Positions 9,387 to 26,850 are shown, counted from the stretch's first letter. The stretch is 64,000 nucleotides of DNA from an uncultured Oscillospiraceae bacterium (GCA_964472725.1 CAYYLZ010000001.1:3336-67335); one strand, 5' to 3'. Translations and numbers: made by a program. The notes: generated by a model from the sequence alone, not told the origin.

Positions 9387-9432
9387 GATTAATGCTGAAG
9401 TTTATTTTGAAGCGATATTGTATTATTTTGTG

Positions 9433-9726: not shown

Positions 9727-9860
9727 TTATATCCCAATTCCCGTTATGTACCCAACTTCAACCTTATGCCCAACCCTTGTCCTATCAACCCGCTCGTATC
9801 TCGCAGTTCGTATGTGACACATCTTCTTGAGAATTTTGGGGAATTATGTCGAAAAAAGAA
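9727..9860 (-). repeat. copy A of the ~134-bp repeated module
   Basis: Embedded ORF 9727..9822 (-) MCHIRTARYERVDRTRVGHKVEVGYITGIGI. The conserved 5' arm at 9823..9860 has an in-frame TAA and the core sequence gacataattcccc. Confidence 0.85.
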
Positions 9861-9905
9861 AGTTTTACATAGATTTTATGTATTATATATGATATGAAAA
9901 GAACG

Positions 9906-9940
9906 AAAACAGAGTAGTCCGAATGGGCTACTCTGTTTTT
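9906..9940. terminator. bidirectional hairpin; terminator for the minus-strand operon ending at 9967
   Basis: aaaacagagtagtcc / gggctactctgttttt. Confidence 0.7.
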
Positions 9941-9966
9941 GGCTATACCATGAGTTCTAATTTAGT

Positions 9967-10509
9967 TTATTGATAGCTTTCGACATAGAGCAAGGTTCGT
10001 CTTGCGGTAGCCAAACTGACCTTATCAGAGGTACCGTGCTTTAGCCATGCATTTACATTGCCTGAGTTTAAATTGAGGTCCGTATAGATACGATAATTAG
10101 ATACACCATATCGCTCTTGTAAACGCATGATTTTTTGGCGCATCAGTTCCTTTGTATGATCGTCTGATTGTCCTTTGTTCTTTTTGCTTTGGAAACTTCG
10201 CCAAACCTTGTGGTATTCTTCAGGAAGCGTAACGGAAGATGTCTCAAACAACTGTGTCATTTCCTCTGTACTATATTGTGAAACCATTTCCTTATACACT
10301 GCAAATAAGTTTGGATCTTTGGTTGCTTTCAGTAGTACTGCTTGCTTTCCGGAATAAAGAGCATATAGGAGAAGCGGTTCTCTGAGCCTGGGACTATCGC
10401 TGCTTGCTTCTTTGGCTAGTTTGTATAAACTGGTTGTATTGGACTTGGATAACTGTTTTACATACTGTGTTAGAAAACCTTTGAATGTTAGTTCTCGCAT
10501 GGACACCAC
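9967..10509 (-). CDS. putative HTH-containing partner protein (antitoxin-like) of the adjacent nucleotidyltransferase
   Basis: The C-terminal YGVSNYRIYTDLNLNSGNVNAWLKHG...SLATARR looks like an XRE-type HTH. Overlaps the upstream gene by 22 nt. Confidence 0.45.
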   Translation of the reverse strand: MVSMRELTFKGFLTQYVKQLSKSNTTSLYKLAKEASSDSPRLREPLLLYALYSGKQAVLLKATKDPNLFAVYKEMVSQYSTEEMTQLFETSSVTLPEEYHKVWRSFQSKKNKGQSDDHTKELMRQKIMRLQERYGVSNYRIYTDLNLNSGNVNAWLKHGTSDKVSLATARRTLLYVESYQ

Positions 10510-11027
10510 CTCTCTACATATGCCTTGTAACTATCAAGAAATTGTCTGTACTGGAATTCGTTTAAGGCGGAAGCTTTTGCTTCGTCGTCTGCTGTTGCCA
10601 AATGCTCCAGGCGCTTCCAATCAATTGCTGCGAGCACCTTGGAATCGCTGATGTCCTGAATATCTGTTGTTCTCGCAGAGTACAGCTTTGCTATCACAAT
10701 ATCTTCTAAAGATGCTGTGTAGAAATCAATCCGGCGACCATTGGTGAGTATCGGCACGAGTCTGTCATCATAGTTATATGGGAAATTGTTGACAAACGTT
10801 TTCACTCGAGTATTAATATCATATTTTTCGAGTAGGTCAACAATCTCGGGGGAGACATCCAGCGCATCAATATCATGTGTAGCGCGAGTTATTGTTTCCA
10901 ACAAAATCAGTGCGCTACCGCCAACGATAACCATTCTAAACCTACGGTCATCATCGAAAAGCAAATCGGCATCCTCGTCCAAGCGTGCCAAACGCTTCAT
11001 CAAATCTTCTTTGAAATAACTACTCAT
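10488..11027 (-). CDS. minimal nucleotidyltransferase-fold protein (DUF6036/AbiEii-like)
   Basis: VGGSALILL...THDIDAL matches the GS...D.D nucleotidyltransferase signature. Confidence 0.6.
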   Translation of the reverse strand: MSSYFKEDLMKRLARLDEDADLLFDDDRRFRMVIVGGSALILLETITRATHDIDALDVSPEIVDLLEKYDINTRVKTFVNNFPYNYDDRLVPILTNGRRIDFYTASLEDIVIAKLYSARTTDIQDISDSKVLAAIDWKRLEHLATADDEAKASALNEFQYRQFLDSYKAYVERWCPCEN

Positions 11028-11138
11028 CGCTTAAAATCCTTTGAAATAAATAATACTATTAATCAATCATTATTATATGTGCTTTTTGGTAGTCTGTCAA
11101 TAGCGCTATTATAAAGCAATTCAAAAACCGCGGTGTTA

Positions 11139-11272
11139 TTATGTTCCAACCCCCACTATGTACTCTATCTCAACCTTATGCCCAGCCCTTGTCCTGTCAA
11201 CACGGTCGTATTTCGCAGTTCGTATGCGACACATCTTCTTGGGAATTTTGGAGGATTATGTCAAGGAAGAAA
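11139..11272 (-). repeat. copy B of the repeated module
   Basis: Embedded ORF 11139..11234 (-) MCRIRTAKYDRVDRTRAGHKVEIEYIVGVGT. The 5' arm contains gacataatcctcc. Confidence 0.85.
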
Positions 11273-11419
11273 AACATTTGTTGATTATTGGTGTGAAATA
11301 GTGTTTGATTCGAATAAAGCGTGAGAATATGGTTCAAAGTAAATCTAATAGGAGTAAAATATATTGACCATATCACGATACCGTGATATAATTGAGGCGC
11401 AAAGAAAGGAGGCATAACA

Positions 11420-11674
11420 GTGCCGGTATTGTCTAGATTTTATGGAATTGTAATCAGAATGTATTTCCTGCAGAGTGAACATAATCCTCCGCATATCCAT
11501 GCAATTTACAACGATGATGTTGCGGCAATTGATTTTATGACCGGTGAGATTATCGAGGGAGATCTTCCAGCGAAAGCTCTTGCGATGGTAAGAGAATGGC
11601 TTTCGATTCACAAATATACGCTGCAGGAAATGTGGGAAACGCAGGAATTTAAGAAAATTCCGCCGCTGGAATAA
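11420..11674 (+). CDS. DUF4160-family protein
   Basis: GTG start after AAAGGAGG. FYGIVIRMYF...EHNPPHIHA is the family hallmark. Confidence 0.7.
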   Translation: MPVLSRFYGIVIRMYFLQSEHNPPHIHAIYNDDVAAIDFMTGEIIEGDLPAKALAMVREWLSIHKYTLQEMWETQEFKKIPPLE

Positions 11675-11685
11675 GGAGGTTTTCT

Positions 11686-12120
11686 ATGTTTCATAAAGTG
11701 AAGAATGTATCTCCGCTTCCTGAGTTCAAGTTGAGCGTCCAATTCAGTGAAGGTGTTACTAAAATTTATGATGTGTCTCAGCTTTTTGAAAAGATTGCAG
11801 TATTCAAACATTTCGAAGAGCACCCTGAAGAGTTCGGCTGTGTTTCTGTAGACGTGGGTGGGTACGGCATTGTTTGGAATGATGATTTGGATCTGTCTTG
11901 TGATGAGCTGTGGGAACACGGTGTTCAAGTGGAAACACCGTTTGATGGCTTGATGGCGTTTAGCGATGCCACAGAATTGTGGGGACTGAACGAGAGTACC
12001 TTGAGGAAGGCTATTACTTACGGTAAACTTGTAAACGGAGTTGATGTTTGTAAGTTTGGAAAGCAGTGGGTTATTTCCGCTGAAGCCATGGAAAGGGAAT
12101 ATGGATCTGCGTTAAGCTGA
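11686..12120 (+). CDS. DUF2442-family protein with a C-terminal DNA-binding-like extension
   Basis: VSVDVGGYGIVWNDDLDLSCDELW is typical of DUF2442. Forms the classic pairing with the DUF4160 gene 12 nt upstream. Confidence 0.65.
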   Translation: MFHKVKNVSPLPEFKLSVQFSEGVTKIYDVSQLFEKIAVFKHFEEHPEEFGCVSVDVGGYGIVWNDDLDLSCDELWEHGVQVETPFDGLMAFSDATELWGLNESTLRKAITYGKLVNGVDVCKFGKQWVISAEAMEREYGSALS

Positions 12121-12233
12121 TGGTATATTAGCGCGCAAAGTAAACTGTACTCTAATTTATTGGTCAGATTAGTTTTGAACGGAAAGATAAATAACAAAGG
12201 ACGAGATACTTCAGAGAAAACGGAGGGAGAAAC

Positions 12234-13202
12234 ATGGATCCCAATACTACAATAGAAGCGCTGAGCAACAGTGCAAACGCTCTAACAAAATTGCAGGAAA
12301 TAATACAGAAGATTTTTAATCCTAAATGGACAAGAAAACAGAATGAGGCGGACATGGAGGCAAATGAACGGAAACTACAGATGATTAGAGATAATCCTGA
12401 TATGGATATAGTGTTCATTGGAGATGAAATGCATGCCCGAAAAGCGACGTATGAGGAATTAACGAGCCGAGCTGAAAAAAGAATGCTCACAGATGCTGTG
12501 CGGCAAGAGCAAAATATAGAGAGTGTATTGGAAATTGCCGTTGAAGAGCTGCGACAGGTAGAATCGGTGTCTGAGAGACCGGTAGATGATGATTGGATTA
12601 CAAGGATATTCAATATAGTTAAAGACGTTAGCAATGAAGAAATGCAATACATATGGGGGAAAATTTTAGCCGGTGAGATTACGCGACCAGGCAGCTTTTC
12701 TATGAGAACACTTGAAACAATTAGAAATATATCGCAAATTGAAGCGGAAACATTTCAAAAGTTGATGCCCCTTTTGGTGTACGGCGGTGGAGATTGGTTT
12801 ATTACTTCCAAAGCTGATCTACACAACAAATACGGAATAACTTATGAGGATATTATGCTTTTGGATGAGTGTGGTCTTATGATATCAAATGGAACAGTAT
12901 CGATGACACTAACGATATCCTCCGATAAGATACTCCTTCATAATAGGGAGTATTGTTTGGTGACCGAAGGGCTAGGAAGCAGAACTGTGAATTTTTCGTT
13001 TGGTGTATATTCACTTACCAGCACAGGTAAGGAATTGTTCAATATACTGGAGCATGAACCTAATGACGATTATTTTATTGAATTTGCGGGGTATATTTTT
13101 AAGGAAAACAGACATACAAACCTCAAAGTCAAAAAAGTTGAAAAAATGCAAGTAGACAAGATTCGTGTCACAGAAGAAGTTGTATGTGAATTTCGTGTAT
13201 GA
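12234..13202 (+). CDS. DUF2806/Abi-alpha-like protein
   Basis: DDDWITRIFNIVKDVSNEEMQYIWGKILAGEITRPGSFSMRTLETI matches the family core as I remember it. Confidence 0.55.
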   Translation: MDPNTTIEALSNSANALTKLQEIIQKIFNPKWTRKQNEADMEANERKLQMIRDNPDMDIVFIGDEMHARKATYEELTSRAEKRMLTDAVRQEQNIESVLEIAVEELRQVESVSERPVDDDWITRIFNIVKDVSNEEMQYIWGKILAGEITRPGSFSMRTLETIRNISQIEAETFQKLMPLLVYGGGDWFITSKADLHNKYGITYEDIMLLDECGLMISNGTVSMTLTISSDKILLHNREYCLVTEGLGSRTVNFSFGVYSLTSTGKELFNILEHEPNDDYFIEFAGYIFKENRHTNLKVKKVEKMQVDKIRVTEEVVCEFRV

Positions 13203-13345
13203 CGAAGTGTGTACGTGAGATTAACTGGAATGCCGGACAAGTTGGCAAACAATGGGTTATCTCGGTGGAAGTTCTTAAGCGAGGATATGGGGCTGCGATA
13301 GTTGATGGCATGATTGTTAAATATTCTCCACTTGCGGAAGATTAG
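13203..13345 (+). pseudogene. remnant of the C-terminal end of a second DUF2442-HTH paralogue
   Basis: In-frame ...NAGQVGKQWVISVEVLKRGYGAAIV... parallels FGKQWVISAEAMEREYGSALS at the end of 11686..12120. No start codon. Confidence 0.35.
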
Positions 13346-13422
13346 TTGATTTGGCTAGCCATGGAGCGTAAGAAAGAATGGAGAGAATCTTGGGGTAGCT
13401 ATTTGAGGAAGGTGAAATGTAG

Positions 13423-13794
13423 ATGGGGAAGATTTATTTTGTTGAAGGACTGCAGGAAAAAACATTGGAAATAATACACGAAGCGCATGATTGCGCTGAA
13501 ATTGCATGTGACTTACGCAGAATTGACGACACATTAAACTTTGGAACGGATGCTCAGGCACAGCAACTTGATGGTGAACTGAGAGAAAAGTATCCAACAA
13601 TCAGCATAATGCTGAATGTTGCAAATTCCTTACCAGCTACATGTAGTCGGCTAATGGGTGGATATTCGTCGGGGTCTCAGGGGAAAGCGAATCTTAAACA
13701 GGATTATTGGGGCATAATTTGTGATACTGCAATCAAAAAAGGGTTAAAAAGCAGTTTTGAAACATGCATTGACCATGTAGAAGAGTATCGATAA
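13423..13794 (+). CDS. hypothetical protein (123 aa)
   Basis: ORF with GGAAGGTGA 7 nt upstream. No recognised motif. Confidence 0.45.
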   Translation: MGKIYFVEGLQEKTLEIIHEAHDCAEIACDLRRIDDTLNFGTDAQAQQLDGELREKYPTISIMLNVANSLPATCSRLMGGYSSGSQGKANLKQDYWGIICDTAIKKGLKSSFETCIDHVEEYR

Positions 13795-13827
13795 GTTGCT
13801 CAAAGAGAAAACAGGAAACATGAAGAC

Positions 13828-13862
13828 GGCAGGACATGGGGATAACCATGTCCTGCCGTTTG
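13828..13862 (+). terminator. hairpin terminator
   Basis: 12-bp stem ggcaggacatgg / ccatgtcctgcc, then gttt. Confidence 0.6.
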
Positions 13863-13865
13863 GGC

Positions 13866-13997
13866 TTACACCCCCAGCCCCACTATGTACCCAACTTCAA
13901 CCTTATGCCCAACCTTTGTTCTATCCACCCGCTCATAGTTCGCAGTTCGTATGGGTGTCATCTTCTTGGGAATTTTGGAGGATTATGTCGAAAGAAA
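13866..13997 (-). repeat. copy C of the repeated module
   Basis: Embedded ORF 13866..13961 (-) MTPIRTANYERVDRTKVGHKVEVGYIVGLGV. 5' arm present. Confidence 0.85.
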
Positions 13998-14045
13998 CAT
14001 ATTTTTCCAAGTGTCTAAATAGAATTTAGTTGTCACACAAAGAGG

Positions 14046-14074
14046 TTGATGAACGATGAAATGTGTGGTATAAT
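14046..14074 (+). promoter_or_regulatory. sigma-A-type promoter
   Basis: TTGATG, 17-nt spacer, TGgTATAAT (extended -10), about 50 nt upstream of the 14126 start. Confidence 0.5.
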
Positions 14075-14125
14075 ATCCTCGAACAGGCGGTATAGCGTCT
14101 GAACAATTGAGAATGGTGATAAAAT

Positions 14126-14422
14126 ATGCTTATACAAAGCGTTGTGAAGAATGAGGCAGAGCGAAATGAAAAGATGATTCGCCAGTATGAATCGCTTATC
14201 AGCGACCTACCCCGAGGGTCATTGATCTGCCGGAAAAATGAATATTACTATCTGAAGTATCGCGAAGGTGGAAAAGTTCACGACGAATATATCGGGAAAG
14301 ATCGAAAGGTAGTAGAGGAAATCAAAGATAAGCTGGAGCTGCGAAAGCATTACACGCAGATGCTTTCAGCGCTAAAGCAGGAGCAGAAGGCGATTCGCAA
14401 AATTTTGGAGGGATTAGTGTGA
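14126..14422 (+). CDS. hypothetical protein (98 aa)
   Basis: ORF from the track. Its stop codon lies inside the first hairpin of leader R1. Confidence 0.5.
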   Translation: MLIQSVVKNEAERNEKMIRQYESLISDLPRGSLICRKNEYYYLKYREGGKVHDEYIGKDRKVVEEIKDKLELRKHYTQMLSALKQEQKAIRKILEGLV

Positions 14423-14551
14423 AAAATCACACTAATAGGTCAAAATGCCCATCATCTCACCCTTTGGGTAACCGACGATGATGTCACAATCCTCCATGTG
14501 AGGGGATTGTTTGAGAACTATTTATGCGGAAGTACCGCATGGAGGATTTGC
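14407..14551 (+). promoter_or_regulatory. structured leader R1 (four hairpins, ends in SD plus ATG)
   Basis: Homologous to 15277..15418. Hairpins: attagtgtga/tcacactaat; catcatc..accc-ttt-gggt..gacgatg; aatcctc/gaggggatt; atgcgg/ccgcat. Ends in GGAGGATTT and the ATG at 14552. Confidence 0.6.
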
Positions 14552-15037
14552 ATGATTATTTATCACGGCAGCACAGTTTTGGTAGATAAGCCTGAAATAC
14601 GAACAGGGGATGTGTTTTTGGACTTTGGTGTTGGCTTTTACACTACCACCTCCTACGATCAGGCAGAGCGTTGGGCACGAATTAAGATGAGGCGTGAAAA
14701 CAAAGCGATTGGTTATGTTGCTGCGTATGAATTCGATTATGAGGCTGCAAAGGGAAACACGATTATCAGGAAGTTTGATGCGGCTGATATGGAATGGCTG
14801 CTGTTTGTGGTGAATAACCGGAGAGGCTTGCCGTTTGATGAGCCTGTTGACATGCACATAGGGCCGGTGGCTGACGACAATGTGTATCAGTCTATTCGTT
14901 TCTTTGAGACCGGCATACTTAATGCAGAAGAAACTGTGAAACGCTTGAAAACAGAAGCCCTGCATGATCAGTGGACATTCCATATCGAAAAACTGCTGCG
15001 CTATTGCAGATTTATCGAAGGCAAGGAGGTAAAATGA
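14552..15037 (+). CDS. DUF3990-family protein
   Basis: MIIYHGS...LDFGVGFYTT...QAERWA is the family N-terminal signature. Start reassigned to the ATG preceded by GGAGGA. Confidence 0.65.
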   Translation: MIIYHGSTVLVDKPEIRTGDVFLDFGVGFYTTTSYDQAERWARIKMRRENKAIGYVAAYEFDYEAAKGNTIIRKFDAADMEWLLFVVNNRRGLPFDEPVDMHIGPVADDNVYQSIRFFETGILNAEETVKRLKTEALHDQWTFHIEKLLRYCRFIEGKEVK

Positions 15038-15038
15038 T

Positions 15039-15275
15039 ATGGGGCATGAGCAGTTCAGCGCCATACTGCCGGTGATAAGCGCAGATATTGTCCACATGAT
15101 TGCGGACAAACGGAGAATTACCGAAAACGAAGCAATAAAACTTCTGTATATATCGCAAGTTTATGCGGCACTGGAACAGGAGGAAACAAAGGTGTGGCAG
15201 TACAGTACCGATATGCTTTACTCACTGTTGGAACAGGAATGGAAAGACGGTAAAATCCGCTTTCCTGATGTATAA
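15039..15275 (+). CDS. small helical protein, probable partner of DUF3990 (DUF3791-like, uncertain)
   Basis: AGGAGG 9 nt upstream. Translationally coupled, 1 nt after the DUF3990 stop. Confidence 0.5.
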   Translation: MGHEQFSAILPVISADIVHMIADKRRITENEAIKLLYISQVYAALEQEETKVWQYSTDMLYSLLEQEWKDGKIRFPDV

Positions 15276-15276
15276 G

Positions 15277-15418
15277 GAGGATTAGTGTGATTTTTCACAC
15301 TAATAGATTAAAAAGCCCATCGCCTCGCCCTGCGGGCAACCGGCGATGATGGCAAAATCCTCCCTGCCTGAGGATTTTTAATTACTATTTGCGCGGCAGA
15401 GCCGCATGGAGGATTTAT
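15277..15418 (+). promoter_or_regulatory. structured leader R2 (paralogue of R1)
   Basis: Same four hairpins as R1, with changed loops (aaaa to tttt, ttt to tgc, aagta to cagag) and compensatory stem changes. Confidence 0.6.
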
Positions 15419-15634
15419 ATGAGCAAGGAAGCTAAGTTTATAGTATTTTGTATGGAAAACTATAAGGTGTATAAATCTTTGACCGGCAGACAGGTATCGG
15501 AATTGTTTGAGAAATACGGCGTGTTCGATTATATCCGGGAATTCTACGATGTGCTGCATACAACAGGGTATCAGTATATAAATAACGATATTGACATTTA
15601 TCTGCAGGCGAGAGATGCGGTAATGCCCGTATAA
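15419..15634 (+). CDS. DUF3791-family protein
   Basis: FIVFCMENYKVYKSLTGRQVSELFEKYGVFDYIREFYDVLHTTG matches the family pattern as I remember it. Confidence 0.6.
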   Translation: MSKEAKFIVFCMENYKVYKSLTGRQVSELFEKYGVFDYIREFYDVLHTTGYQYINNDIDIYLQARDAVMPV

Positions 15635-15663
15635 GTACGACAATGATTGAGTGGGGTGAATAG

Positions 15664-15981
15664 ATGGGCATCCTTACGTTGGCGAGCGGGAAACCAGTGT
15701 ATCGCGGATACGATTATTATAAGAACAAAAAAGTGATTCAGCTGCAGCAAACAGATGATACCATTTTTGATGGGACTGTATCCGGGAGTAATGGGGAAGT
15801 ATATCATGTGACCATAGATACTGCGCACCCGAGGAAATCCGTATGTGACTGCCCTCATGCTGCCGGTCGTGAAATTATGTGCAAGCATATGGTGGCGCTG
15901 TATTTTACAGTGTTCCCGGAAGAGGCAGAGAATTATATCCGGGAGTTGGAAGCATATTGGAAGGAAGAAGAGCAGCGTTAG
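15664..15981 (+). CDS. SWIM zinc-finger protein, ending at an in-frame TAG; the frame continues to 16119
   Basis: CDCPHAAGREIMCKHMVALYF is a CxCx(n)CxH SWIM motif. Another 45 protein-like codons follow the TAG and stop just before a terminator. Confidence 0.6.
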   Translation: MGILTLASGKPVYRGYDYYKNKKVIQLQQTDDTIFDGTVSGSNGEVYHVTIDTAHPRKSVCDCPHAAGREIMCKHMVALYFTVFPEEAENYIRELEAYWKEEEQR

Positions 15982-16120
15982 GAAGATTTGGATGAAAACC
16001 TGATAAAGTATATCAAAAGCCTGAAAAAGAATGAGCTTCAGGATAAACTGCTGGAGCTTCTGTACGATTGCCCTGAATGGCTATTTGATCGGTTTATAAG
16101 AGATAATTTGGATTACTGAA

Positions 16121-16159
16121 AAACAGCAGGACTGTGCATAAGCATGTCCTGCTGTTTTT
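16121..16159 (+). terminator. rho-independent terminator
   Basis: aaacagcaggac / gtcctgctgttttt. Confidence 0.8.
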
Positions 16160-16186
16160 GATTATTGCAGACATCGGAATGTTTGG

Positions 16187-16320
16187 TTCAACACATCAGC
16201 CCAACTATGTACCAAACCTCAGCCTTATGTCCAACCTTAGTTCTATCAACCCGCTCGGATCTCGCAGTTCGTACGTGACACATCTTCTTGAGAATTTTGG
16301 GGAATTATGTCTGAAGAGGA
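16187..16320 (-). repeat. copy D of the repeated module
   Basis: Embedded ORF 16187..16282 (-) MCHVRTARSERVDRTKVGHKAEVWYIVGLMC. 5' arm present. Confidence 0.85.
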
Positions 16321-16528
16321 AATATTCGATAACGTGTATTATATGTTCTTTATTTTGAAAAATGTTGTTTTGCATTATGGCAGGAGGTTGTCTTGATTTA
16401 AACCGAAGAACGCCGTATAATAATATTGACACTTATATTCAAATGTAGAAATGACTTGCAATTTTATGTAACATATGTAGGGCGCGGATTATATACGAGT
16501 GAAATGGTACTGGGATAAGGAGAATACT

Positions 16529-17281
16529 ATGACGGAGATTGAAAAAATTGCATATGCAAGGGGCTATATCGAAAAGCTTGCAAACGGAATAAATCCACTG
16601 AATGATCAGCCGGTATCGGATAGTGACTTGATCAACAATGTTAGGATATCCCGATGTTTGTTCTATGTGTCTGACTTGCTTCGGCAGGTTGAAGAACAGG
16701 GCGGTATAGTCGGGAAAGCAGTTAAGGAAAAGAAAGCTCCGTTTTGGTTGGACTATGATGCGCGCCTGAAATTCCGGTTTTCCGAAACGCCGATCGCCAT
16801 TAGCGAGATCACTAAACGGATTAACGATTTGATCGATGCGGAGCAAATGAAAAAGATTAGCTATAAACATATATTAGAGTGGCTGATCGAGCTTGATGCA
16901 TTAACTGTAGTAACCGATGTAAATGGAAAATCAGCCAAGAATCCCACTCCAAGAGGGGAAGAGCTGGGAATTTCAACCGAGCAGCGACAGGGGCAGAATG
17001 ATGTGTATACAGTTGTTGTTTACAATCGGGAGGCACAGCAATTTATTTTGGATAACCTGGACGCAGTTGTTGAGATTAGCAAACGCCGTGAAAAACAGGA
17101 TAAAGCGGCCGAATTACAGGGACAGCCATGGCTTTCTGCTCATGATGAAGTCTTGATAGACCTCTTTCAAAAGAAAGTTCCTGTCAAGGAGATTGCCAGT
17201 GCTTTGAAACGAACAGAGACCGGTATAAGAGCAAGGCTAAAAAAGCTTGGGTATATTGAACAGCGCAGCGACGCAGAGTGA
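16529..17281 (+). CDS. hypothetical protein with a C-terminal HTH-like segment
   Basis: ATG after AAGGAGA. The C-terminal VPVKEIASALKRTETGIRARLKKLGYIE resembles a sigma-r4/LuxR-type HTH. Confidence 0.5.
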   Translation: MTEIEKIAYARGYIEKLANGINPLNDQPVSDSDLINNVRISRCLFYVSDLLRQVEEQGGIVGKAVKEKKAPFWLDYDARLKFRFSETPIAISEITKRINDLIDAEQMKKISYKHILEWLIELDALTVVTDVNGKSAKNPTPRGEELGISTEQRQGQNDVYTVVVYNREAQQFILDNLDAVVEISKRREKQDKAAELQGQPWLSAHDEVLIDLFQKKVPVKEIASALKRTETGIRARLKKLGYIEQRSDAE

Positions 17282-17371
17282 TGCTGCGGGCAGGACAGCA
17301 AATACTTGAAAACGACGGGTTATCATGATAATATCGACATATATGCTTGTGAAAAAGAATGGAGTGATTTC

Positions 17372-18505: not shown

Positions 18506-18515
18506 TATGAAAAGT

Positions 18516-18797: not shown

Positions 18798-18803
18798 GTT
18801 ATC

Positions 18804-18832
18804 AGTGTAGCATATTTTGTGAGGGGTGTCAA
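18804..18832 (-). promoter_or_regulatory. sigma-A-type promoter for the tracrRNA
   Basis: Minus strand: TTGACA, 17-nt spacer, TACACT, about 7-8 nt before the anti-repeat. The -35 box ends 1 nt from the cas9 ATG. Confidence 0.5.
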
Positions 18833-18833
18833 C

Positions 18834-21800
18834 ATGGAAAGAAAAAGTAATTATTATCTGGGGCTGGATATAGGAACGGATTCGCTTGGATATGCTGTGA
18901 CAGACGGAGAATATAATATTTTAAAATTCAACGGAGAGCCAATGTGGGGTGTACATCTCTTTGAAGAAGCGGGTACAGGCGAGGAACGCCGGAACTTCCG
19001 TACTGCGCGCAGACGGCTGGATCGCCGGCAGCAGCGAGTGGATTTGGTTCAGGAGATTTTTGCAAAAGAAATATACAAGGTGGATCCGGCATTTTATATA
19101 AGGATCGCGGAAAGCCATAAATTTTCGGATGACAGCGAATACGGAGTAGCGTTGTTTCAGGATTCGGACTATACCGATGGACAATATTTACGCGATTACC
19201 CGACAATTCACCACTTGATCTGCGAACTGATGGACAACTCTGCAACCCATGATGTGCGGCTGGTATATCTAGCTTGTGCGTGGCTGGTAGCTCATCGAGG
19301 TCACTTCCTGAAAGAGGTGTCGGTTGATAATCTGGAAGAACTTACTGATCTTTCTTCTGTTTACCGGGAATTTATGGAATTCTTTGAGGGAGAAAAACCG
19401 TGGGGAGAGATTAATGCGGAAACCTTTGGAGAAGTTTTGAGAAAGAAAATCGGTAAAGCTGCAAAATACAAAGAACTGAGCCGACTGATTTATGGAAACG
19501 CTAAAGTTTCAAAGGAAGTGTCGGAAGAATTCCCTTACAGCCGGGAAGGTATACTCAAGCTTCTTTGCGGTAGCCAATATGCTGTCAGTGCTCTGTTCGA
19601 CAACAAGGAGTACGTGGAGCTGGGTTCGATTTCGCTGGATATGAATGACGAAAGCTTTGACGCACTCAGGTCTAATATTGGCGATGATGGAGAGCTTCTT
19701 GTTAAGCTTAAAAGTATTTATGACTGGACCGTGCTGTGCGATGTGCTTAGAGGCAATACATTTATATCTCAGATGAAGGTCGAGGACTACGAACAGCATC
19801 GTAAGGATCTGCAGCAGCTTAAGCGCCTGGTGAAAAAGTATATTCCAAAAGAATATAACGAAATATTCCGCGTTTCCGTAAAAGGTCTGACCAACTACAC
19901 TGCATACAGCGGCAATTTCCGGAATACTGCAGCAGCGGAGGAGAACAGCAGGACGACTCAGGAGGAGTTTTGCAAATACATATTGAAGAAGTTCGAGTTT
20001 GTAATGCCCCAGCCGGAGGATGAGCAGGAACTGACAGTTATGCGTGAGCGGCTTGATTTGAAGAAATTCATGCCAAAGCAGGTCAACGGAGATAACCGTG
20101 TTGTACCTCAGCAGGTGTATTATGCGGAACTGCGCCGCATTCTGGAGCAGGCTGCGAACTATCTGCCATTCCTTACGGAGAAGGATGCCGACGGATTGAC
20201 CCCAGCGGATAAACTATTGTCTGTGTTCAGCTTTCGCGTTCCGTATTTCGTTGGCCCGCTGAATAATGCCAGTGAACATGCGTGGATAAGGCGCAAGGCT
20301 GAAGGCAGGATACTTCCCTGGAACTTCGAGGAAAAAGTGGACCTGGATGCAAGCGAACAGGCATTTATTGCCCGCATGACAAATAAATGCACCTATCTGC
20401 CGGGGGAAGACGTACTGCCGGAAGTGTCTCTCTGCTATGAACGATACAAGGTGCTCAACGAGATAAACACAATAAAAATCAACGGCAGAAGTCTGTCTGC
20501 AGAGGCCAAGCAGGGAATATTCAACGACCTTTTCATGAACATGAAAAAGGTGACCCCGAAGCGCATCAAAGATTACCTGCTCTCCAATAATTATTGTACG
20601 GCTGAGGATTTGAATACATTCAGCGGATTGGACGAAACAGTGAAGTCAGGCCTTGCCATGCACAGTGCTTTTGCTCGGCTTATGAACGATACGCTGACTG
20701 AGGAGGATGTAGAAAGAATAATACGACGGGCTGCCTGCTGTGAAGATAAGGGCAGACTCCGGCTCTGGTTGAAAAGGGAATTCCCCGCACTGTCCGAGGA
20801 AGACAGGCGGTATATAGCAGGGCTGAAGATCAAGGGCTTCGGCAGACTGTCCAAGAAATTCCTTGCCGGTATACTCGGCGTGGAGAAATCCACAGGGGAG
20901 GTCAATACCATTCTTGGCTGGATGTGGGAACACAACCTCAACCTCATGCAGCTGCTGTCCGAACAATTTGATTTCGCTGAGCAGATAGAAAAAATACGGG
21001 CGGAATACTACGATGCGAATAAGCTGGCGCTGAACGAGCGCCTCGATAGTATGTATATCTCAAATTCTGTCAAACGTCCTATTATCCGTACTATGGATAT
21101 TGTACGCGAGGTAGTCAAAGCCAAGGGCTGTCCGCCGAAGAAGATATTCGTGGAAATGGCTCGCGGTGGAAATGCGGAAGAAAAAGGAAAACGCACTAAA
21201 TCCCGCTATGAGCAGCTGTGCGAGCTGTACGCGAAAGTGGATACAGAGGATGTGCGCCAGCTTCAGGCAGAGCTGGAGGAAATGGGGGAGGCTCGGGATA
21301 GCCGGCTGCAGAGTGAGCGGTTGTTCCTGTATTTCCTGCAGCTGGGCAAGTGTATGTATAGCGGGGAGGCGATAGACCTTTCAAAGCTTGCGGGTGAGAC
21401 TTATAATGTGGACCATATCTATCCGCAGTCCAAGGTCAAGGACGACAGTATCGTTAATAATAAGGTTCTTGTAAGAAGCGAGATAAACGGGAGTAAGAAG
21501 GATGATTATCCCATTGCTGCCGATATCCGCAGAAAAATGGGTGCGCAATGGAAGCTGCTGCGGGAGCTTGGGCTGATAAACGAGGAAAAATATCGCCGCC
21601 TGACACGCGATACCCCCTTTGATGAAAATGAGGAATGGGGCTTTATCAACCGTCAGCTGGTAGAGACCCGCCAGTCTACCAAGGCCGTGACCACCCTGCT
21701 GAGCGAAAAATATCCCGAAACAGAGATAGTTTATGTCAAAGCCGGGATGGTTTCTGAGTTCCGACAGGACTTTGATGTGCTCAAGTGCCGATCTGTGAAT

Positions 21801-22901
21801 GACCTGCACCATGCAAAGGATGCCTATCTGAACATCGTGGTCGGAAATGTATACAGTGAGCGATTTAATCATCAGTGGTATTTGGCAAACAGAAATAATT
21901 ACTCCGTAAAGACCAAAGCGGTTTTCACTAATCCGGTGACTGTGAACGGAGCAGTTGTCTGGAACGGAAAAACCGCGCTTGAAAAAGTTATTAATACCGT
22001 ACGGAAAAATAATGCTGTGCATTTGACCCGATACGCGTTTTGCAAGGCGGGAGGCTTCTTTGACCTGCAGCCGAGAAAAGCCGGAGAAAATCTGGTGCCG
22101 CGGAAACTTGGGCTTCCGGCGGAAAAATATGGAGGATACCGAAAGCCTGCCGTGTCATTCTATATTCTTGTGGCCTTTACGGTGAAAAAGAAGCGGGAGG
22201 TAATGTTCGTGCCTATTGAGCTGCACAGCAGGCAGTTTATGAGGGATGAACTTTTGGCCCGGGGGTATGTTTGGCGGCAGGCGGAAAAAATAATCGGGAA
22301 AAGCGTAAGTGATTTTGAACTGCCGCTGGGACTGAGACCCATAAAAATAAACACCATGCTTGAAGCAGACGGTTACCGCATGACACTGTCGGGCAAATCT
22401 GGTGGAGGAAAGAGTGTTATCGTCTCGGGTATGGTGCCGCTGATAGTGGGAGATAAATGGGACGGCTATATCAAACGGCTGGAGCGCTTTGCGGAGAAGA
22501 AAAAGCAGAATCCGGCTATGATATGGTCAGAGAAATATGACAAAATATCACCGGCAGAGAATATTGAGCTTTACGATACGCTCTGCGGTAAGCTGGAAAA
22601 TAATATGTACCGTAAGCGCCCAGCCAATCCGATAAAGGATTTGAAAAACGGCAGAGAGAAGTTCCTTGAGCTCGATATTGCGCGGCAGGTACACTGTTTG
22701 CTGCAGATGGTTGCTCTGTTCGGAAGAACCGCGAGCGGCTGTGATCTGAGCGGGGTCGGCGGTAAGCCGCGCGCCGGAGCTACTACAAGATCTTCGAGCT
22801 TGAGCAATTGGGCAAAGGAATACAAGGATGTACGTATCATAGACCAATCGGCGGCCGGTCTGTTTGAAACCCGATCCGTGAATTTGCTGGAGCTGTTATG
22901 A
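18834..22901 (+). CDS. cas9: Cas9 (type II-A), 1355 aa
   Basis: RuvC-I YYLGLDIGTDSLGYAV, RuvC-II IFVEMARG, HNH YNVDHIYPQSKVKDDSIVNNKVLV, RuvC-III NDLHHAKDAYLN. Start at the ATG after GAGGGG. Confidence 0.95.
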   Translation: MERKSNYYLGLDIGTDSLGYAVTDGEYNILKFNGEPMWGVHLFEEAGTGEERRNFRTARRRLDRRQQRVDLVQEIFAKEIYKVDPAFYIRIAESHKFSDDSEYGVALFQDSDYTDGQYLRDYPTIHHLICELMDNSATHDVRLVYLACAWLVAHRGHFLKEVSVDNLEELTDLSSVYREFMEFFEGEKPWGEINAETFGEVLRKKIGKAAKYKELSRLIYGNAKVSKEVSEEFPYSREGILKLLCGSQYAVSALFDNKEYVELGSISLDMNDESFDALRSNIGDDGELLVKLKSIYDWTVLCDVLRGNTFISQMKVEDYEQHRKDLQQLKRLVKKYIPKEYNEIFRVSVKGLTNYTAYSGNFRNTAAAEENSRTTQEEFCKYILKKFEFVMPQPEDEQELTVMRERLDLKKFMPKQVNGDNRVVPQQVYYAELRRILEQAANYLPFLTEKDADGLTPADKLLSVFSFRVPYFVGPLNNASEHAWIRRKAEGRILPWNFEEKVDLDASEQAFIARMTNKCTYLPGEDVLPEVSLCYERYKVLNEINTIKINGRSLSAEAKQGIFNDLFMNMKKVTPKRIKDYLLSNNYCTAEDLNTFSGLDETVKSGLAMHSAFARLMNDTLTEEDVERIIRRAACCEDKGRLRLWLKREFPALSEEDRRYIAGLKIKGFGRLSKKFLAGILGVEKSTGEVNTILGWMWEHNLNLMQLLSEQFDFAEQIEKIRAEYYDANKLALNERLDSMYISNSVKRPIIRTMDIVREVVKAKGCPPKKIFVEMARGGNAEEKGKRTKSRYEQLCELYAKVDTEDVRQLQAELEEMGEARDSRLQSERLFLYFLQLGKCMYSGEAIDLSKLAGETYNVDHIYPQSKVKDDSIVNNKVLVRSEINGSKKDDYPIAADIRRKMGAQWKLLRELGLINEEKYRRLTRDTPFDENEEWGFINRQLVETRQSTKAVTTLLSEKYPETEIVYVKAGMVSEFRQDFDVLKCRSVNDLHHAKDAYLNIVVGNVYSERFNHQWYLANRNNYSVKTKAVFTNPVTVNGAVVWNGKTALEKVINTVRKNNAVHLTRYAFCKAGGFFDLQPRKAGENLVPRKLGLPAEKYGGYRKPAVSFYILVAFTVKKKREVMFVPIELHSRQFMRDELLARGYVWRQAEKIIGKSVSDFELPLGLRPIKINTMLEADGYRMTLSGKSGGGKSVIVSGMVPLIVGDKWDGYIKRLERFAEKKKQNPAMIWSEKYDKISPAENIELYDTLCGKLENNMYRKRPANPIKDLKNGREKFLELDIARQVHCLLQMVALFGRTASGCDLSGVGGKPRAGATTRSSSLSNWAKEYKDVRIIDQSAAGLFETRSVNLLELL

Positions 22902-23782
22902 GCTGGAGAACCGTTGTTATCAGCAGCAGATGCAAGCTGGATCTGAAAATGGGATATATGGTGGTGCGCGGCGAGGATGTGAAGCGAATATTTCTGGATG
23001 AGATAGCTATCCTTGTTATAGAAAACCCGGCGGTATCTCTTACAGGCTGTCTGTTGGAGGCTTTGGTGTCGCAGAAAATACGTGTGATTTTCTGCGATGC
23101 CAAACGCTCGCCTATGGCGGAGCTTGCTCCCTATTACGGCGCCCATGATTCGCCGCGTAAGATAAGAGCTCAGATGTCGTGGGGCGCGGAGCTCAAGCGT
23201 ATGGTGTGGGCCGAGATAGTTTCGGAGAAAATTCGAAGACAAGCGGAATTTTTGGAGGAACTGAAACGGGCACGGGAGAGTGCTATGCTGCGGGAATATA
23301 TTGCGCAAATACAGCCCGGAGACGCAACGAACAGGGAGGGACACGCGGCAAAGGTATATTTCAACGGCATTTTCGGAATGGACTTTACCCGCAGCGAGGA
23401 TACGGCTGTGAATGCCGCGCTGAACTATGGCTATTCCGTTATCCTTTCGGCTTTCAACAGGGAAATAACTGCCTGCGGTTATATAACTCAGTTGGGAATA
23501 TTCCATGACAATATGTTCAATCATTTCAATCTCAGCAGCGATCTTATGGAGCCTTTCCGCATTCTAATAGACAGAGTGGTGGTGAAGATGCCGCTTGAAA
23601 AATTTGAAACGGTGCATAAGCGTGTTTTGTGGGATGTGCTAAATAAATATGTTCTTATTGAGGGGAAGAGGCAGACGGTGCTAAACGCAATAAAAATATA
23701 TACCAAGAGCGTGTTTGATGCGCTGAATGATGGAGATTTGGCAAATATAAGGTTTTACCGAATTATTAATGACGACATATGA
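22898..23782 (+). CDS. cas1: Cas1
   Basis: Type II Cas1-like sequence ([22 protein letters not shown]). 4-nt overlap with cas9. Confidence 0.9.
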
Positions 23783-24099
23783 GTTATAGATTTATGCGAG
23801 TGCTTGTGTTTTTTGATCTGCCTACAGAGACCCTTGAAGACCGCCGAAATTACAGCCGGTTCAGAAAGCTGCTTTTGAAAAACGGATTTTTGATGCTTCA
23901 GGAATCGGTCTATTGTCGTATGCTGCTCAATGGAACAGCGGAAAAGACTGTACTGGAGCTGATAAGAAAATACAGCCCTCCTGCGGGTCTTGTTCAGGTG
24001 CTCACGGTTACTGAAAAGCAATTTGCCAAAATGGAGTATATTACCGGAGAGGCGCAGCATGAGGTAGTGGATACGGATGAAAGGTTGATAGTGCTTTGA
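23779..24099 (+). CDS. cas2: Cas2
   Basis: [13 protein letters not shown]...ESVY pattern. 4-nt overlap with cas1. Confidence 0.85.
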
Positions 24100-24770
24100 A
24101 GTTTGCTTATCCCGAGATCAGCGGTGTTTTCGAGGTGTATAAGCCTTATGCAAATACGCTGGTAATAGAAAATCAAAAATTGTTCTCCGCTCTGATTCGT
24201 GATATTTATTTGGGGATTTGCGGTATGGAAACAGGATGCGTGCTGTCGCTGCAGAATACTCCTGTTTCCATGGCGAAGCACTGTGAACTGATAAGCAGCT
24301 TTGTGGATTTTGACCTTAATCGCAAGCCACTCCTGAATAAAATAATAGCTGGTCTGGAGGAGAAAGCGCTTGAGCCGCAGAACTATACGGAGACAATGCA
24401 GCTTTTAAGCGACATAGAGAACAGCATTGACAAATGGGCCTTCGATTTTCCGTGCGATATTGTTTCCTCGAAAATAACGGTAGCCAACATGCTGAAGTCT
24501 GTAGGCTTGGAGCTGCGGCAGGAGTACAGCGGTATTAATGCCCTTGGAGAAAAGCTGCTTGACTATATGGAGCTTGTCCGTGAGTTTGAGCGGGATAAGC
24601 TGTTTGTGCTGGTTGGTCTTCGCAGTTATCTGCCGGATGATGCCGCGGAGCGCTTTTTAAACTCGGTTGTTGCCCATGAATTTCACGTCATGCTCATCGA
24701 CAGTCGGGATCATCCACGGCTGTCGGCGGAGCGACGAATTACGGTGGATGAAGATTTATGTGAATTTTAA
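24096..24770 (+). CDS. csn2: Csn2 (type II-A signature protein)
   Basis: About 224 aa, in the position after cas2 and before the array. TTG start overlaps the cas2 stop. N-terminal NTLVIEN and general Csn2 likeness. Confidence 0.7.
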
Positions 24771-24892
24771 TTGACAATTTATATGTTTTGATGAATAATG
24801 AATGTAGGCTTACACAGAGCCCCTGCGGATGTACTTCTCTACCTCGCTGGCATCGTAGACCGGTTGTTTCGGATGTTGGTCCGGGATTTGAG
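24771..24892 (+). promoter_or_regulatory. CRISPR leader
   Basis: Lies between the csn2 stop and the first repeat. The degenerate repeat is at the far end, which fits this orientation. Confidence 0.5.
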
Positions 24893-25126
24893 GTTTGAGA
24901 GTAGTGTAAATCTATAGGGGTCTCAAACTCAAGCTCGGCGGCAATGTCAATAACAGTCGTTTGAGAGTAGTGTAAATCTATAGGGGTCTCAAACCTGCGG
25001 AAATAATACGAACACCGGGAATTGGTTTGAGAGTAGTGTAAATCTATAGGGGTCTCAAACCGTATGCATGTCCTATGTACGTATACCCCTGTTTGAGAGT
25101 AGTGTAAATCTATAGGGTTAATGAAA
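24893..25126 (+). CRISPR. CRISPR array: 4 repeats of 36 bp and 3 spacers of 30 bp
   Basis: Repeat gtttgagagtagtgtaaatctataggggtctcaaac at 24893, 24959 and 25025. The terminal copy at 25091 diverges after position 27. Spacers: tcaagctcggcggcaatgtcaataacagtc, ctgcggaaataatacgaacaccgggaattg, cgtatgcatgtcctatgtacgtatacccct. Confidence 0.95.
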
Positions 25127-25157
25127 TGCGCTGAACTATCTGAAGTTCAGCGCATTT
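25124..25157. terminator. bidirectional hairpin between the array and the ssp gene
   Basis: aaatgcgctgaact / agttcagcgcattt. Confidence 0.75.
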
Positions 25158-25196
25158 ATATTATTGTGGACAGGTGGCAGATATTGAAATATTTAT

Positions 25197-25299
25197 TTAC
25201 ACCACCAGCCCCGCTATGTACTCAACCTCTACCTTATACCCAACTTTAGTCCTATCAACTCGTTCGTATCTCGCAGTTCGTACGGGTGTCATCTTCTTG
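25197..25299 (-). repeat. copy E of the repeated module (lacks the 5' arm; fused in frame to ssp)
   Basis: The last 31 codons of the ssp ORF (MTPVRTARYERVDRTKVGYKVEVEYIAGLVV) are the module reading frame. Similarity to other copies begins at caagaagatg. Confidence 0.8.
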
Positions 25300-25454
25300 A
25301 CCATCTGGCCGCCGATGGAGCCGGCCTGCTTGGAGGTGAGGTCGCCGTTGTAGCCCTGCTTGAGGTTAACGCCGACTTCGTTGGCAGCTTCCATCTTGAA
25401 CTTATCCATGGCCTCACGGGCGTTGGGATTCATAATGCTGTTGGACTTAGACAT
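25197..25454 (-). CDS. alpha/beta-type small acid-soluble spore protein with a non-canonical 31-aa tail
   Basis: MSKSNSIMNPNAREAMDKFKMEAANEVGVNL...GDLTSKQAGSIGGQMVKKM carries both conserved SASP blocks. AAGGAGA RBS. Confidence 0.75.
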   Translation of the reverse strand: MSKSNSIMNPNAREAMDKFKMEAANEVGVNLKQGYNGDLTSKQAGSIGGQMVKKMTPVRTARYERVDRTKVGYKVEVEYIAGLVV

Positions 25455-25590
25455 TTTGTTTATCTCCTTGTTTGTTTATTGGGTATTGCAGTTATATTTT
25501 TGCCGACACGTTGTTTTATATTCTGCTAATTTTTTGATGTTGTAATAAAGAACTGTGAGCATGGATACAGGAGTGTTTTATAACGAAACA

Positions 25591-25622
25591 GAGGCCTGAT
25601 GCGATGAAACGCATCAGGCCTC
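25591..25622. terminator. hairpin terminator after the UROD-family gene
   Basis: gaggcctgatgcg / cgcatcaggcctc. Confidence 0.75.
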
Positions 25623-25644
25623 ATTATTTTTGATTGCAGCATTA

Positions 25645-26628
25645 TCAGATACTTCTTGCTGCCTCAATTATCCAGTTTACGCGTTCAAGATCCATGCGGT
25701 GATCCATTGTGCAGTCGCCGCCAATCATTACACCCAGCTTACCGGTATCAAGAATGAGCTGGCGGGTATATTCCTGTAGTTCCTCCTTGGAGCCGTGGTA
25801 CAGTATGCCGCGCTGCTCATCAGTGGATTCAACACCCCAATGGGTGTCAAAACCGCCGAGAATGGTCTTGTTGCCGAAGAGGAAGCGACCCTCGTGGAGA
25901 GGAATGTCCTCAACATGAGTTGCCCAGTTTACGCACTTGACAGGATAGTCATACCAAAGGCTTGTCCTGTTTGGCTCTCCCATAAATCCGCAGCAGTGCA
26001 TAATGTTGTTGTCGGAATAACGGTTTATATGCTCAAGCACATAGAACTCGCTGGGGACTATAATGTCTTTGTATTCCTCCTCGGTGAAGCGGGTATACTC
26101 GGCGTTCTGGACGCAGTAATATATACCATCGCAGCCACATTCGGTAATGATAAGCTCCGCGAGCAGAGCACTGCTCTGAGCGACAGCGTCAAGGACTTTC
26201 TTCAGCTCGTTTTTGTTATTTCGGGCAAACTCCATAGCAAGCTCGTCCGAAATGGCCGTCTTAAGAGAAGTGAAAGGGTTGAAAATATTATAGAACATAC
26301 ACATATCCTTGCCGAACTTCTCTACAAGGACGCGAGCTCTTTCCAACTGTCCGGTAATCCACGGATGATTTCTGTCTAGCGGCTTGATTTTAAGCAGATC
26401 CTCGATGGTTTTCACTTCACCCTCGGTGGGGAAAGGAAAATATCCGTCGCTCATGATTTTAACAAAGTCAAGGTCAAGCTTGCTGTAATAATCAATATGG
26501 GCATCAATGCAGGGCTGACCGGTCATGAATTGATAATCTTCATCGAAGAAATGAATCCAAAAACCTACCGGAACATGGTCAACCGGCTGCTTGTTAAGCG
26601 CATTGAGCACTCTGGTTCTCTTGTCCAT
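25645..26628 (-). CDS. uroporphyrinogen decarboxylase (URO-D/MtaA-like) family protein
   Basis: 327 aa. N-terminal LNKQPVDHVPVGFW and overall likeness to URO-D-fold methyltransferase/decarboxylase proteins. Confidence 0.65.
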   Translation of the reverse strand: MDKRTRVLNALNKQPVDHVPVGFWIHFFDEDYQFMTGQPCIDAHIDYYSKLDLDFVKIMSDGYFPFPTEGEVKTIEDLLKIKPLDRNHPWITGQLERARVLVEKFGKDMCMFYNIFNPFTSLKTAISDELAMEFARNNKNELKKVLDAVAQSSALLAELIITECGCDGIYYCVQNAEYTRFTEEEYKDIIVPSEFYVLEHINRYSDNNIMHCCGFMGEPNRTSLWYDYPVKCVNWATHVEDIPLHEGRFLFGNKTILGGFDTHWGVESTDEQRGILYHGSKEELQEYTRQLILDTGKLGVMIGGDCTMDHRMDLERVNWIIEAARSI

Positions 26629-26716
26629 AATAACCCTCCGATAATATAATAGTAAAATTTGCGCTTACCGCAATCCTACTTTAGAGTGTATCATAGACAG
26701 CATTTCCAGTCAATCA

Positions 26717-26850
26717 TTAACCTTGCCCCACTATGTACTCCGATTCAACTTTATGCCCAGCCTTTGATTTATCGAGCCCTTCATATTTTGCGGTTCGTAC
26801 GTGACACATCTTTTTGGGGATTTTGGAGGATTATGTCGAAAGAGGAAGGG
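26717..26850 (-). repeat. copy F of the repeated module
   Basis: Embedded ORF 26717..26809 (-) MCHVRTAKYEGLDKSKAGHKVESEYIVGQG (30 aa). 5' arm present and abuts the truncated ssp. Confidence 0.85.

Follow-up and report, generated by a model that had tools for sequence, protein, structure and literature searches.

How do defence and toxin-antitoxin (TA) genes come to stand in a row of separate blocks, each bounded by the same short repeat? The question is raised by a stretch of 64,000 nucleotides (nt) from an uncultured Oscillospiraceae bacterium (GCA_964472725.1 CAYYLZ010000001.1:3336-67335), referred to here as the window. Between positions 9,727 and 26,850 of the window, six copies of a module (A to F) divide 17 kb of such genes, among them a type II-A clustered regularly interspaced short palindromic repeats (CRISPR)-Cas locus. 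The module is the 3' end of ssp, a gene for a small acid-soluble spore protein (SASP), and we consider it probable that the 17 kb is an island at ssp that has grown by accretion of cargo cassettes without a recombinase, through serial site-specific integration.

Identity of the repeat

An earlier note on this DNA had listed six copies in the same orientation. A repeat search and an nhmmer profile confirm the list: the window holds exactly six copies, all on the plus strand, and no others, and a degenerate pattern of 27 nt matches six of the six, where shuffled sequences gave an expectation of 0.00. Spacings from copy to copy, A to F, are 1412, 2727, 2322, 9009 and 1517 nt. Over the shared ~100 nt the copies are 65-84% identical in pairs. 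The likeness of A and C holds (84% identity over 96 nt), although the hand count of 79 identical positions out of 96 has to be changed to about 81. Short Logan/ENA fragments of the same strain are broken at the repeats.

The module is the natural 3' end, that is the last 33-34 codons and the stop codon, of an Oscillospiraceae gene for an alpha/beta-type SASP, read on the minus strand. This identity follows from copy E, which reads through as a SASP, and from native ssp genes elsewhere, which match the module. The open reading frame (ORF) of copy E matches Pfam PF00269 (SASP) at 2.6e-25 over residues 5-55; it starts with a ribosome-binding site (AAGGAG) and ATG, and has its own terminator hairpin at ~25127-25160. 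Copy E, which had been described as truncated, is thus the 3' end of an intact gene of 85 aa (25454 to 25197). It is the parent gene, and the other five copies are 3' fragments of ssp. In these five the homology to ssp ends at a fixed point, AAG AAG ATG ("KKM", codon 53), and is followed by a conserved AT-rich arm of about 35-43 nt that is not ssp and is called ext here. The copies and associated ssp sequences, with the coding sense on the minus strand in each case, are:

Copy A: 9727..9872, minus; ssp 3' fragment at 9727-9829 with frame and stop codon kept, and ext arm at 9830-9872
Copy B: 11139..11283, minus; ssp 3' fragment and ext arm
Copy C: 13866..14011, minus; ssp 3' fragment and ext arm, contiguous with a DUF6788 cassette in three genomes
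Copy D: 16188..16333, minus; ssp 3' fragment and ext arm, not present in the close strain L040
Copy E: 25197..25300 (profile match), minus; 3' end of the intact ssp
Intact ssp, parent of copy E: 25197..25454, minus; 85 aa, Pfam SASP, the last 34 codons (25197-25299) being the module
Copy F: 26717..26851 (profile match 26714-26858), minus; ssp 3' fragment (32 codons and stop) and a 35-nt ext arm
Second ssp 5' end: 26852..27021, minus; promoter region and 24 codons, 83-89% identical to 25384-25552

On the minus strand all copies can be read as KKM[CT][HPR][IV]RTA..E/D.[VL]D[RK][TS][KR].G[HY]K.E..YI.G... and then a stop, with the frame and the stop codon kept. On the plus strand ext reads ...CATCTTCTTG/RGAATTTTGGRGRATTATGTCGAAAGAGGAA, and the copies are unrelated past it. 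Homology between copies stops sharply, ~100 nt to one side of the KKM junction and 41-48 nt to the other, and the outer end of ext lies at the same position in every copy. In some copies a terminator hairpin is found downstream of the ssp 3' fragment.

A scan of GTDB at one genome per species returned 16 stretches matching the module pattern, on 15 contigs, all from Oscillospiraceae (Oscillibacter, Lawsonibacter, Flintibacter, Neglectibacter and further metagenome-assembled genomes, MAGs). Fifteen of the matches fall on the 3' end of an ssp gene, native or split, that has the same tail of ~30 residues; the remaining one (L003) is an ext-type copy. Native ssp stretches contain one module copy per stretch read (15 other genomes), and one more native ssp with the same ~30-aa tail is found on a faecal scaffold. 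The C-terminal tail of Oscillospiraceae SASPs is itself conserved over ~30 residues, P[VI]RTA.[YF].R.DR.A.GH.[VI].[VI].YI..., beyond the end of the Pfam domain at about residue 55; it was seen at 25197-25299 of the window and in L001, L005, L008-L012, L014-L016 and L039.

Blocks between the copies and a second array

The gene families previously assigned to the intervals were recovered by domain searches of the interval ORFs. The cassettes carry 2-8 genes each, on either strand. None of the scanned window ORFs has a recombinase, integrase or transposase domain, which agrees with the earlier observation that no such gene lies between A and F. The contents of the intervals are:

Cassette A-B: 9873..11138; 180-aa protein at 9967-10509 (minus), DUF6036 nucleotidyltransferase at 10488-11027 (minus)
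Cassette B-C: 11284..13865; DhiT-like (DUF4160-type) toxin at 11420-11674, DUF2442 with a helix-turn-helix (HTH) domain at 11686-12120, DUF2806 at 12234-13202, 123-aa ORF with a terminator hairpin
Cassette C-D: 14012..16187; DUF6788 at 14126-14422, DUF3990 at 14498-15037 (PADLOC candidate PDC-M13), 78-aa ORF, DUF3791 at 15389-15634, SWIM at 15664-15981
Cassette D-E: 16334..25196; 260-aa ORF, weak HipA_C-like kinase at 17306-18505, cas9 at 18819-22901, cas1, cas2, csn2, CRISPR array of four repeats at 24892-25126, ssp terminator hairpin at ~25127-25160
Interval E-F: 25553..26716, minus; URO-D-like gene at 25645-26628

A second lineage with ext-type copies is represented by a deer-cecum MAG (Lawsonibacter-like) and matching ENA/Logan scaffolds (L001, L003, L041-45). 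Its array includes a large serine recombinase (LSR) gene, and the order is:

Part 1: MatE, intact ssp (L041 710-973), leucine-rich repeat protein, signal peptidase, pilus cluster, sortases, copy L3c
Part 2: PRiA4_ORF3, DUF3791, 78-aa ORF, DUF3990, DUF6788, copy L3b
Part 3: 138-aa ORF, Ntox44 toxin, copy L3a, three small ORFs
Part 4: 556-aa LSR (L041 17063-18733; Resolvase, Recombinase and Zn_ribbon domains), core ATP-binding cassette (ABC) transporter

The DUF6788-DUF3990-DUF3791 block of this array is the C-D cassette of the window and adjoins ext in the same way; the alignment of C with L3b runs unbroken for 404 nt from the module through ext into the cassette. The window, L040 and the second lineage all have the DUF6788 cassette directly joined to ext and module. 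The copies of the second array carry the ssp terminator of their own lineage. Compared with models of CcrC and CcrB, the LSR of the second array gives weak matches (1e-30 and 2e-27, ~100 bits against cut-offs of 900 bits). The module pattern had no match in viral contigs and none in plasmids, and a search of a phage collection gave a single match, a chromosomal scaffold with a native ssp.

The ssp gene as an insertion site for large serine recombinases

In this family ssp is a recurrent insertion site for LSR elements. L002, L004, L007 and L013 all have the gene broken at codon 25/26 and an LSR gene directly upstream of the break; in L013, the cultured Flintibacter muris DSM 110149, this LSR has 556 aa and a TndX-like C-terminus. 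A further relative (L034-38), 84-90% identical to the window over cas9, the CRISPR array and ssp, has its homologue of copy E cut at the same place, here by a degenerate gene with Resolvase and DUF4368 domains. Split ssp genes occur in at least five genomes, with at least two different element-side arm sequences. Since ssp is expressed in the forespore, the splits are probably plain disruptions of one paralogue and not developmental elements like skin. A search of a protein database with the antisense ORF of the module, for ext-type copies wrongly annotated as genes, returned only the split native ssp genes of a relative and no new arrays.

The right-hand boundary of the island bears on the same insertion point. 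The second ssp 5' end directly abuts the ext of copy F, so that copy F looks like an ssp with codons 25-52 swapped for the 35-nt ext and the reading frame broken. To the right of F lie core genes, a cyclophilin and an Opp-type ABC transporter, which are 99-100% identical in several metagenome samples. Inserted DNA therefore appears to begin at 26851/26852 and to extend leftward past the window edge. Homology between the window and the relative with the cut gene (L035) stops at 25382, and the 5' repeat shared by E and F stops at 25384/26852. As these two breakpoints lie within a few bases of each other, we interpret the outer junction of F as the product of the same kind of LSR event; at copy F the composite insertion would meet the 5' half of a second ssp at an LSR crossover hot spot (codon 24/26). 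The E-F interval lies between 170-nt ssp 5' repeats of 83-89% identity.

Strain differences and origin of the copies

L040 is a contig from a gut sample that also holds the window's species at 99% identity. It has copy C and the DUF6788 cassette at 87-95% identity to the window; within copy C the ssp part is 87% and ext 95% identical. Beyond the stop codon of the module and its hairpin, the DNA of L040 is unrelated to the B-C cassette of the window. At the other end, a PRiA4_ORF3 gene stands in place of SWIM, copy D and the 260-aa ORF (window positions 15714-17290), and is followed by the HipA-like gene with no module in between. Block content, and even the presence of a module, therefore vary between strains. 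Copy C differs from its counterpart in L040 in a patchy way, with the changes clustered in one 47-nt stretch.

Divergence among the copies is of the coding type. Among pairs of copies, dN/dS (the ratio of nonsynonymous to synonymous divergence) lies at 0.13-0.59, and third codon positions hold more of the variable sites (22) than the other two positions (11 and 13). Compared with random mutation of the consensus, fewer amino-acid changes are seen in C (P=0.009), F (0.03) and D (0.06), while A and B are not significant; Fisher combination of the P values, by our own arithmetic, gives ~0.002. The absence of stop codons from the five fragments is not significant alone (P=0.15). A, B, D and F share a variant, "KKMC[HR]", with the ssp of L035, a relative in which this gene is itself split by an LSR element, and the terminator hairpins of C, D and the L040 copy are related to each other and unlike that of E. 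The coding-type divergence and the terminators indicate that the copies derive from working ssp alleles, with their terminators, and not from in-place duplication followed by neutral decay. This would be the outcome if the arriving DNA brought a gene end to replace the old one, or if the resident gene converted the copies. A four-gamete argument for exchange between ext type and a 7-nt block beside KKM was set aside as weak, since it holds only when the distant copy L3a is included.

Proposed serial integration and alternative explanations

The earlier note had proposed repeated integration at one attachment (att) site, and this is the best-supported reading, given the gene-end remnants, the intact target at one end, the second array, the shared cassette and the differences in L040. 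The part of that proposal which took copy E for a truncated attL does not hold, as E is the intact target gene. In the process we envisage, mobile DNA with an attachment region made of ext and an ssp-like 3' end would have recombined with the resident ssp several times. Each event would leave ssp intact, add one block of cargo (TA and defence genes, or the type II-A CRISPR-Cas locus) and push older blocks distally, and each block would be bounded by a repeat of ext and ssp 3' end. Because the cassettes encode no recombinase, they would depend on one supplied in trans. An LSR is the most likely enzyme; its gene would lie either outside the window, in the distal end of the island, or on a helper element. 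Three circumstantial points suggest an LSR: LSR elements insert into ssp in relatives, the second array ends in an LSR, and the junction of F lies at the LSR point. As for the position of the crossover, a site beyond the terminator is favoured by the co-inheritance of module, ext and ext-side cargo and by the break in L040 past the hairpin, and a site at KKM is favoured by the coding-type history of the modules and by the slightly lower identity of the ssp part of copy C (87%) than of its ext (95%).

Several results weigh against serial integration by an LSR. The known LSR junctions are at codon 25/26, whereas the ext-type copies share the KKM junction, and comparison of ext with the readable LSR-side arms (attR junctions) gave no significant similarity (P about 0.1 and 0.7). 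In the domain scan of ORFs no recombinase gene was found in the 64-kb window. Copies within one genome are more alike than they are to their counterparts in the other genome, which fits gene conversion, or a local rather than an imported origin. The loss of D in L040 is part of a larger replacement and not a clean cassette excision, and among the contigs compared there was no circular form, no empty site and no precise gain or loss of a cassette at a module boundary. The second array is identical in five samples and thus gives no sign of ongoing mobility there. No ssp fragment follows its LSR, which may therefore belong to a separate element. Finally, ext-type copies are found in two lineages only, and ext patterns had 0 matches in JGI (Joint Genome Institute) metagenomes (two scans) and in viral contigs.

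The inheritance of module, ext and ext-side cargo as one unit in three genomes is also what would be expected of a dedicated cassette platform resembling integrons or the staphylococcal cassette chromosome (SCC). Here the ~140-nt unit of ext and ssp 3' end would be a cassette-borne recombination site, functionally similar to attC, and units of "cargo + ext + ssp-3' + terminator" would be captured singly beside a primary site (the ssp 3' end or an F-type pseudo-ssp) by one trans-acting recombinase, the crossover falling past the stop codon. L040 and the window part beyond the stop codon and the hairpin and not at KKM, which points in this direction, as do the lack of a recombinase in all cassettes, the constant end of ext in every copy and the LSR at the end of the second array. 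We nevertheless regard such a platform as rather unlikely. As single-stranded DNA the modules are less stable than shuffled sequences (A, C and D, both strands; z +1.0 to +2.7), and no consensus hairpin is found, RNAalifold giving -7 to -9 kcal/mol with almost no covariation. There is no IntI-type or other recombinase adjacent, the cassettes are multi-gene, with their own promoters and in both directions, and two lineages only are represented. The coding-type divergence of the modules would be unexpected for a site that was never part of a gene. The folding results, the lack of IntI and the architecture of the cassettes likewise speak against the integron-like array that the earlier note had offered as its second interpretation.

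A bolder extension, possible though doubtful, is that a portable ssp-derived site of ~140 nt allows a trans-acting LSR to insert, excise and exchange recombinase-less multi-gene defence cassettes in gut Oscillospiraceae. If true, Firmicutes would have in it a counterpart to integrons and SCC that has a site architecture of its own and carries cargo up to a complete type II-A CRISPR-Cas locus.

It is unlikely that no dedicated system is involved and that the copies are simply ssp remnants or paralogues, the blocks having been moved by homologous recombination or gene conversion together with ordinary deletions, by Campbell-type insertion of a circle carrying an ssp fragment, or by unequal crossing-over. 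The identical ext/KKM junction and outer ext end of all ext-type copies, in two distant lineages, argue for one specific transmissible site and not for repeated accidents; moreover, 65-84% identity over ~100 nt is a poor substrate for homologous recombination, and the junction of F falls within a few bases of the LSR crossover point. There are traces that general recombination would explain, namely the greater likeness of copies within than across genomes, the patchy differences between C and L040 in one 47-nt stretch, the 170-nt ssp 5' repeats (83-89%) that flank E-F and the lack of any recombinase. Homologous recombination and gene conversion probably contribute.

An ordinary dispersed repeat, such as a repetitive extragenic palindromic sequence (REP) or miniature inverted-repeat transposable element (MITE), or a structured RNA (riboswitch or leader) that happens to lie between blocks is very improbable: the module is short, intergenic and non-coding in A-D and F, with a GGAGG-ATG motif on the plus strand of ext, but it lacks terminal inverted repeats and any conserved or stable fold, its sequence is that of the 3' end of a protein gene, and, against REP or MITE, it has one orientation only in the window and elsewhere is part of ssp, at one copy per stretch (15 other genomes). 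The modules match no Rfam family at gathering score and no tRNA or tmRNA (ARAGORN). Plus-strand coding was considered and rejected, as the short ORFs starting from GGAGG-ATG in ext are not conserved beyond five codons. In A and C the outer end of ext has an apparent palindrome, which B and D lack and which is not centred on the junction of F; it was treated as chance.

Comparison with known systems

The earlier statement that no described system has these features was too strong, as composite SCC islands, tandem tRNA islands and tycheposon islands work in the same way. SCC elements are inserted at the staphylococcal rlmH gene (orfX) by the LSRs CcrAB or CcrC; the target gene remains intact and tandem cassettes are bounded by repeats of ~18-28 nt. 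The island at ssp resembles them in its insertion at the 3' end of a gene that is left intact, in same-orientation repeats with an att core between tandem cassettes, in the defence cargo and in having an LSR as the candidate enzyme; many SCC cassettes are also without a recombinase and are served in trans. It differs in its target (ssp and not rlmH), in its host (Oscillospiraceae), in the length of its repeats (~140 nt, made up of 100 of gene end and 35-43 of arm, versus ~18-28 nt) and in that the window has no ccr orthologue or any other recombinase.

In the tycheposon islands of Prochlorococcus, serial integration has left partial direct repeats of the target gene and integrase-less remnants with cargo (bioRxiv 10.1101/2020.12.28.424599). 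These islands and tandem tRNA/tmRNA islands share with the present one the use of one site for serial integration, with newer elements pushing older ones further into the island. By contrast, the target here is a protein-coding sporulation gene, all blocks of the window are without a recombinase, and the element-side arm ext is common to all blocks.

The skin and SPbeta elements are intervening elements in sporulation genes, and genes of Firmicutes are also split by LSR-bearing integrative/conjugative elements (TndX-type, with Resolvase and DUF4368 domains). In relatives, elements with a TndX-like LSR interrupt ssp itself at codon 25/26, and F is joined to an ssp 5' half there; A-D, on the other hand, share the KKM junction at codon 53, leave ssp intact and carry no LSR. 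Unlike skin and SPbeta, nothing in the array suggests developmentally regulated excision. With integrons, in which TA cassettes are common, the array shares recombinase-less cassettes in the same orientation and similar sites of ~60-140 nt. It differs from them in the lack of IntI and of an attC-type hairpin, in a site that comes from the end of a protein-coding gene, and in cassettes that are multi-gene, run in both directions and have their own promoters.

It is already established that islands can grow by serial integration and retain remnants of gene ends. What is new here is the target, ssp, the clade, and the long repeat with its conserved arm of 35-43 nt across recombinase-less blocks; a literature search did not turn up any account of ssp serving as an attachment site. 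Should the reading be confirmed, this family, a major one among gut spore-formers, would have a defined integration hot spot in ssp, and the repeat of ext and ssp 3' end could serve as a search handle. Since it marks the limits of accessory-gene blocks, such a handle could help to find defence and TA cargo; the cargo seen here includes the PDC-M13 and PDC-M03 candidates, the DhiT-like toxin, the Ntox44 toxin and CRISPR-Cas. The array would also be a natural example of cassettes that have no recombinase and would rely on a serine recombinase, would bear on the movement of CRISPR-Cas and defence islands in Clostridia, and might yield new pairs of recombinase and att site.

Distal part of the island

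The island continues leftward beyond the window edge, and its distal part up to that edge contains the following:

Distal island part: 1..9726; DEAD/ResIII helicase, MobA/VirD2 relaxase fragment at 2938-3456, small ORF at 3554-3673, IetA-like AAA ATPase, HIRAN protein

The domain scan found no recombinase gene in this part either. The small ORF, right after the relaxase fragment, has a homologue (62% over 40 aa) in the gene directly before the LSR of the second array. The closest relative of that LSR in the database (53% identity) is on a faecal scaffold, L052, on which no ssp-like sequence was found near the LSR; the small upstream gene is kept there as a weaker match (28% over 39 aa). An ORF of ~47 aa therefore stands directly before an LSR in two unrelated contigs (L041 16812-16955 and L052 6179-6295), and its copy in the window has no recombinase after it. 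The ORF may encode a recombination directionality or regulatory factor. The relaxase fragment and the homologue of the small gene together make the distal part look like the degraded end of a mobilisable element whose recombinase has been lost.

Further observations on cargo

The C-D cassette has its own TGTGGTATAAT promoter before DUF6788. In rumen and gut contigs (L024-L031; for example L024 9860-10001) the DUF6788-DUF3990-DUF3791 operon is found directly after a tyrosine integrase and the tRNA-like 3' fragment GGGTTCGACTCCCGC, and has the same TGTGGTATAAT promoter as in the window. Its position beside an integrase and a tRNA-fragment att site suggests that this operon is habitual att-adjacent cargo of different integration systems. 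Within the C-D cassette, 14411-14555 and 15279-15422 form an internal duplication (~145 nt, 78%) around the starts of the DUF3990 and DUF3791 genes.

In the relative L034 (1-2600, compared with window 21141-25382), cas9 (90% identity) and CRISPR repeats stand beside ssp, and cas1, cas2 and csn2 are missing, the missing stretch corresponding to window 22956-24592. Matches to the two components of PADLOC candidate PDC-M03 lie ~8 kb apart in different blocks, A being the HipA-like kinase (17306-18505) and B the HIRAN protein (8889-9338).

Outside the island, two three-copy repeats (28403-28446/29377-29420/43082-43125 and 28744-28789/29742-29787/43414-43459) are ABC ATPase motifs of paralogous transporters and not mobile repeats. 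A 60-nt stretch at 36478-36537, among core genes, is 82% identical to 11839-11898, part of the DUF2442 gene of cassette B-C and 24.6 kb away; this stretch, which includes part of a short ORF (36493-36678), may be the remnant of another TA insertion.

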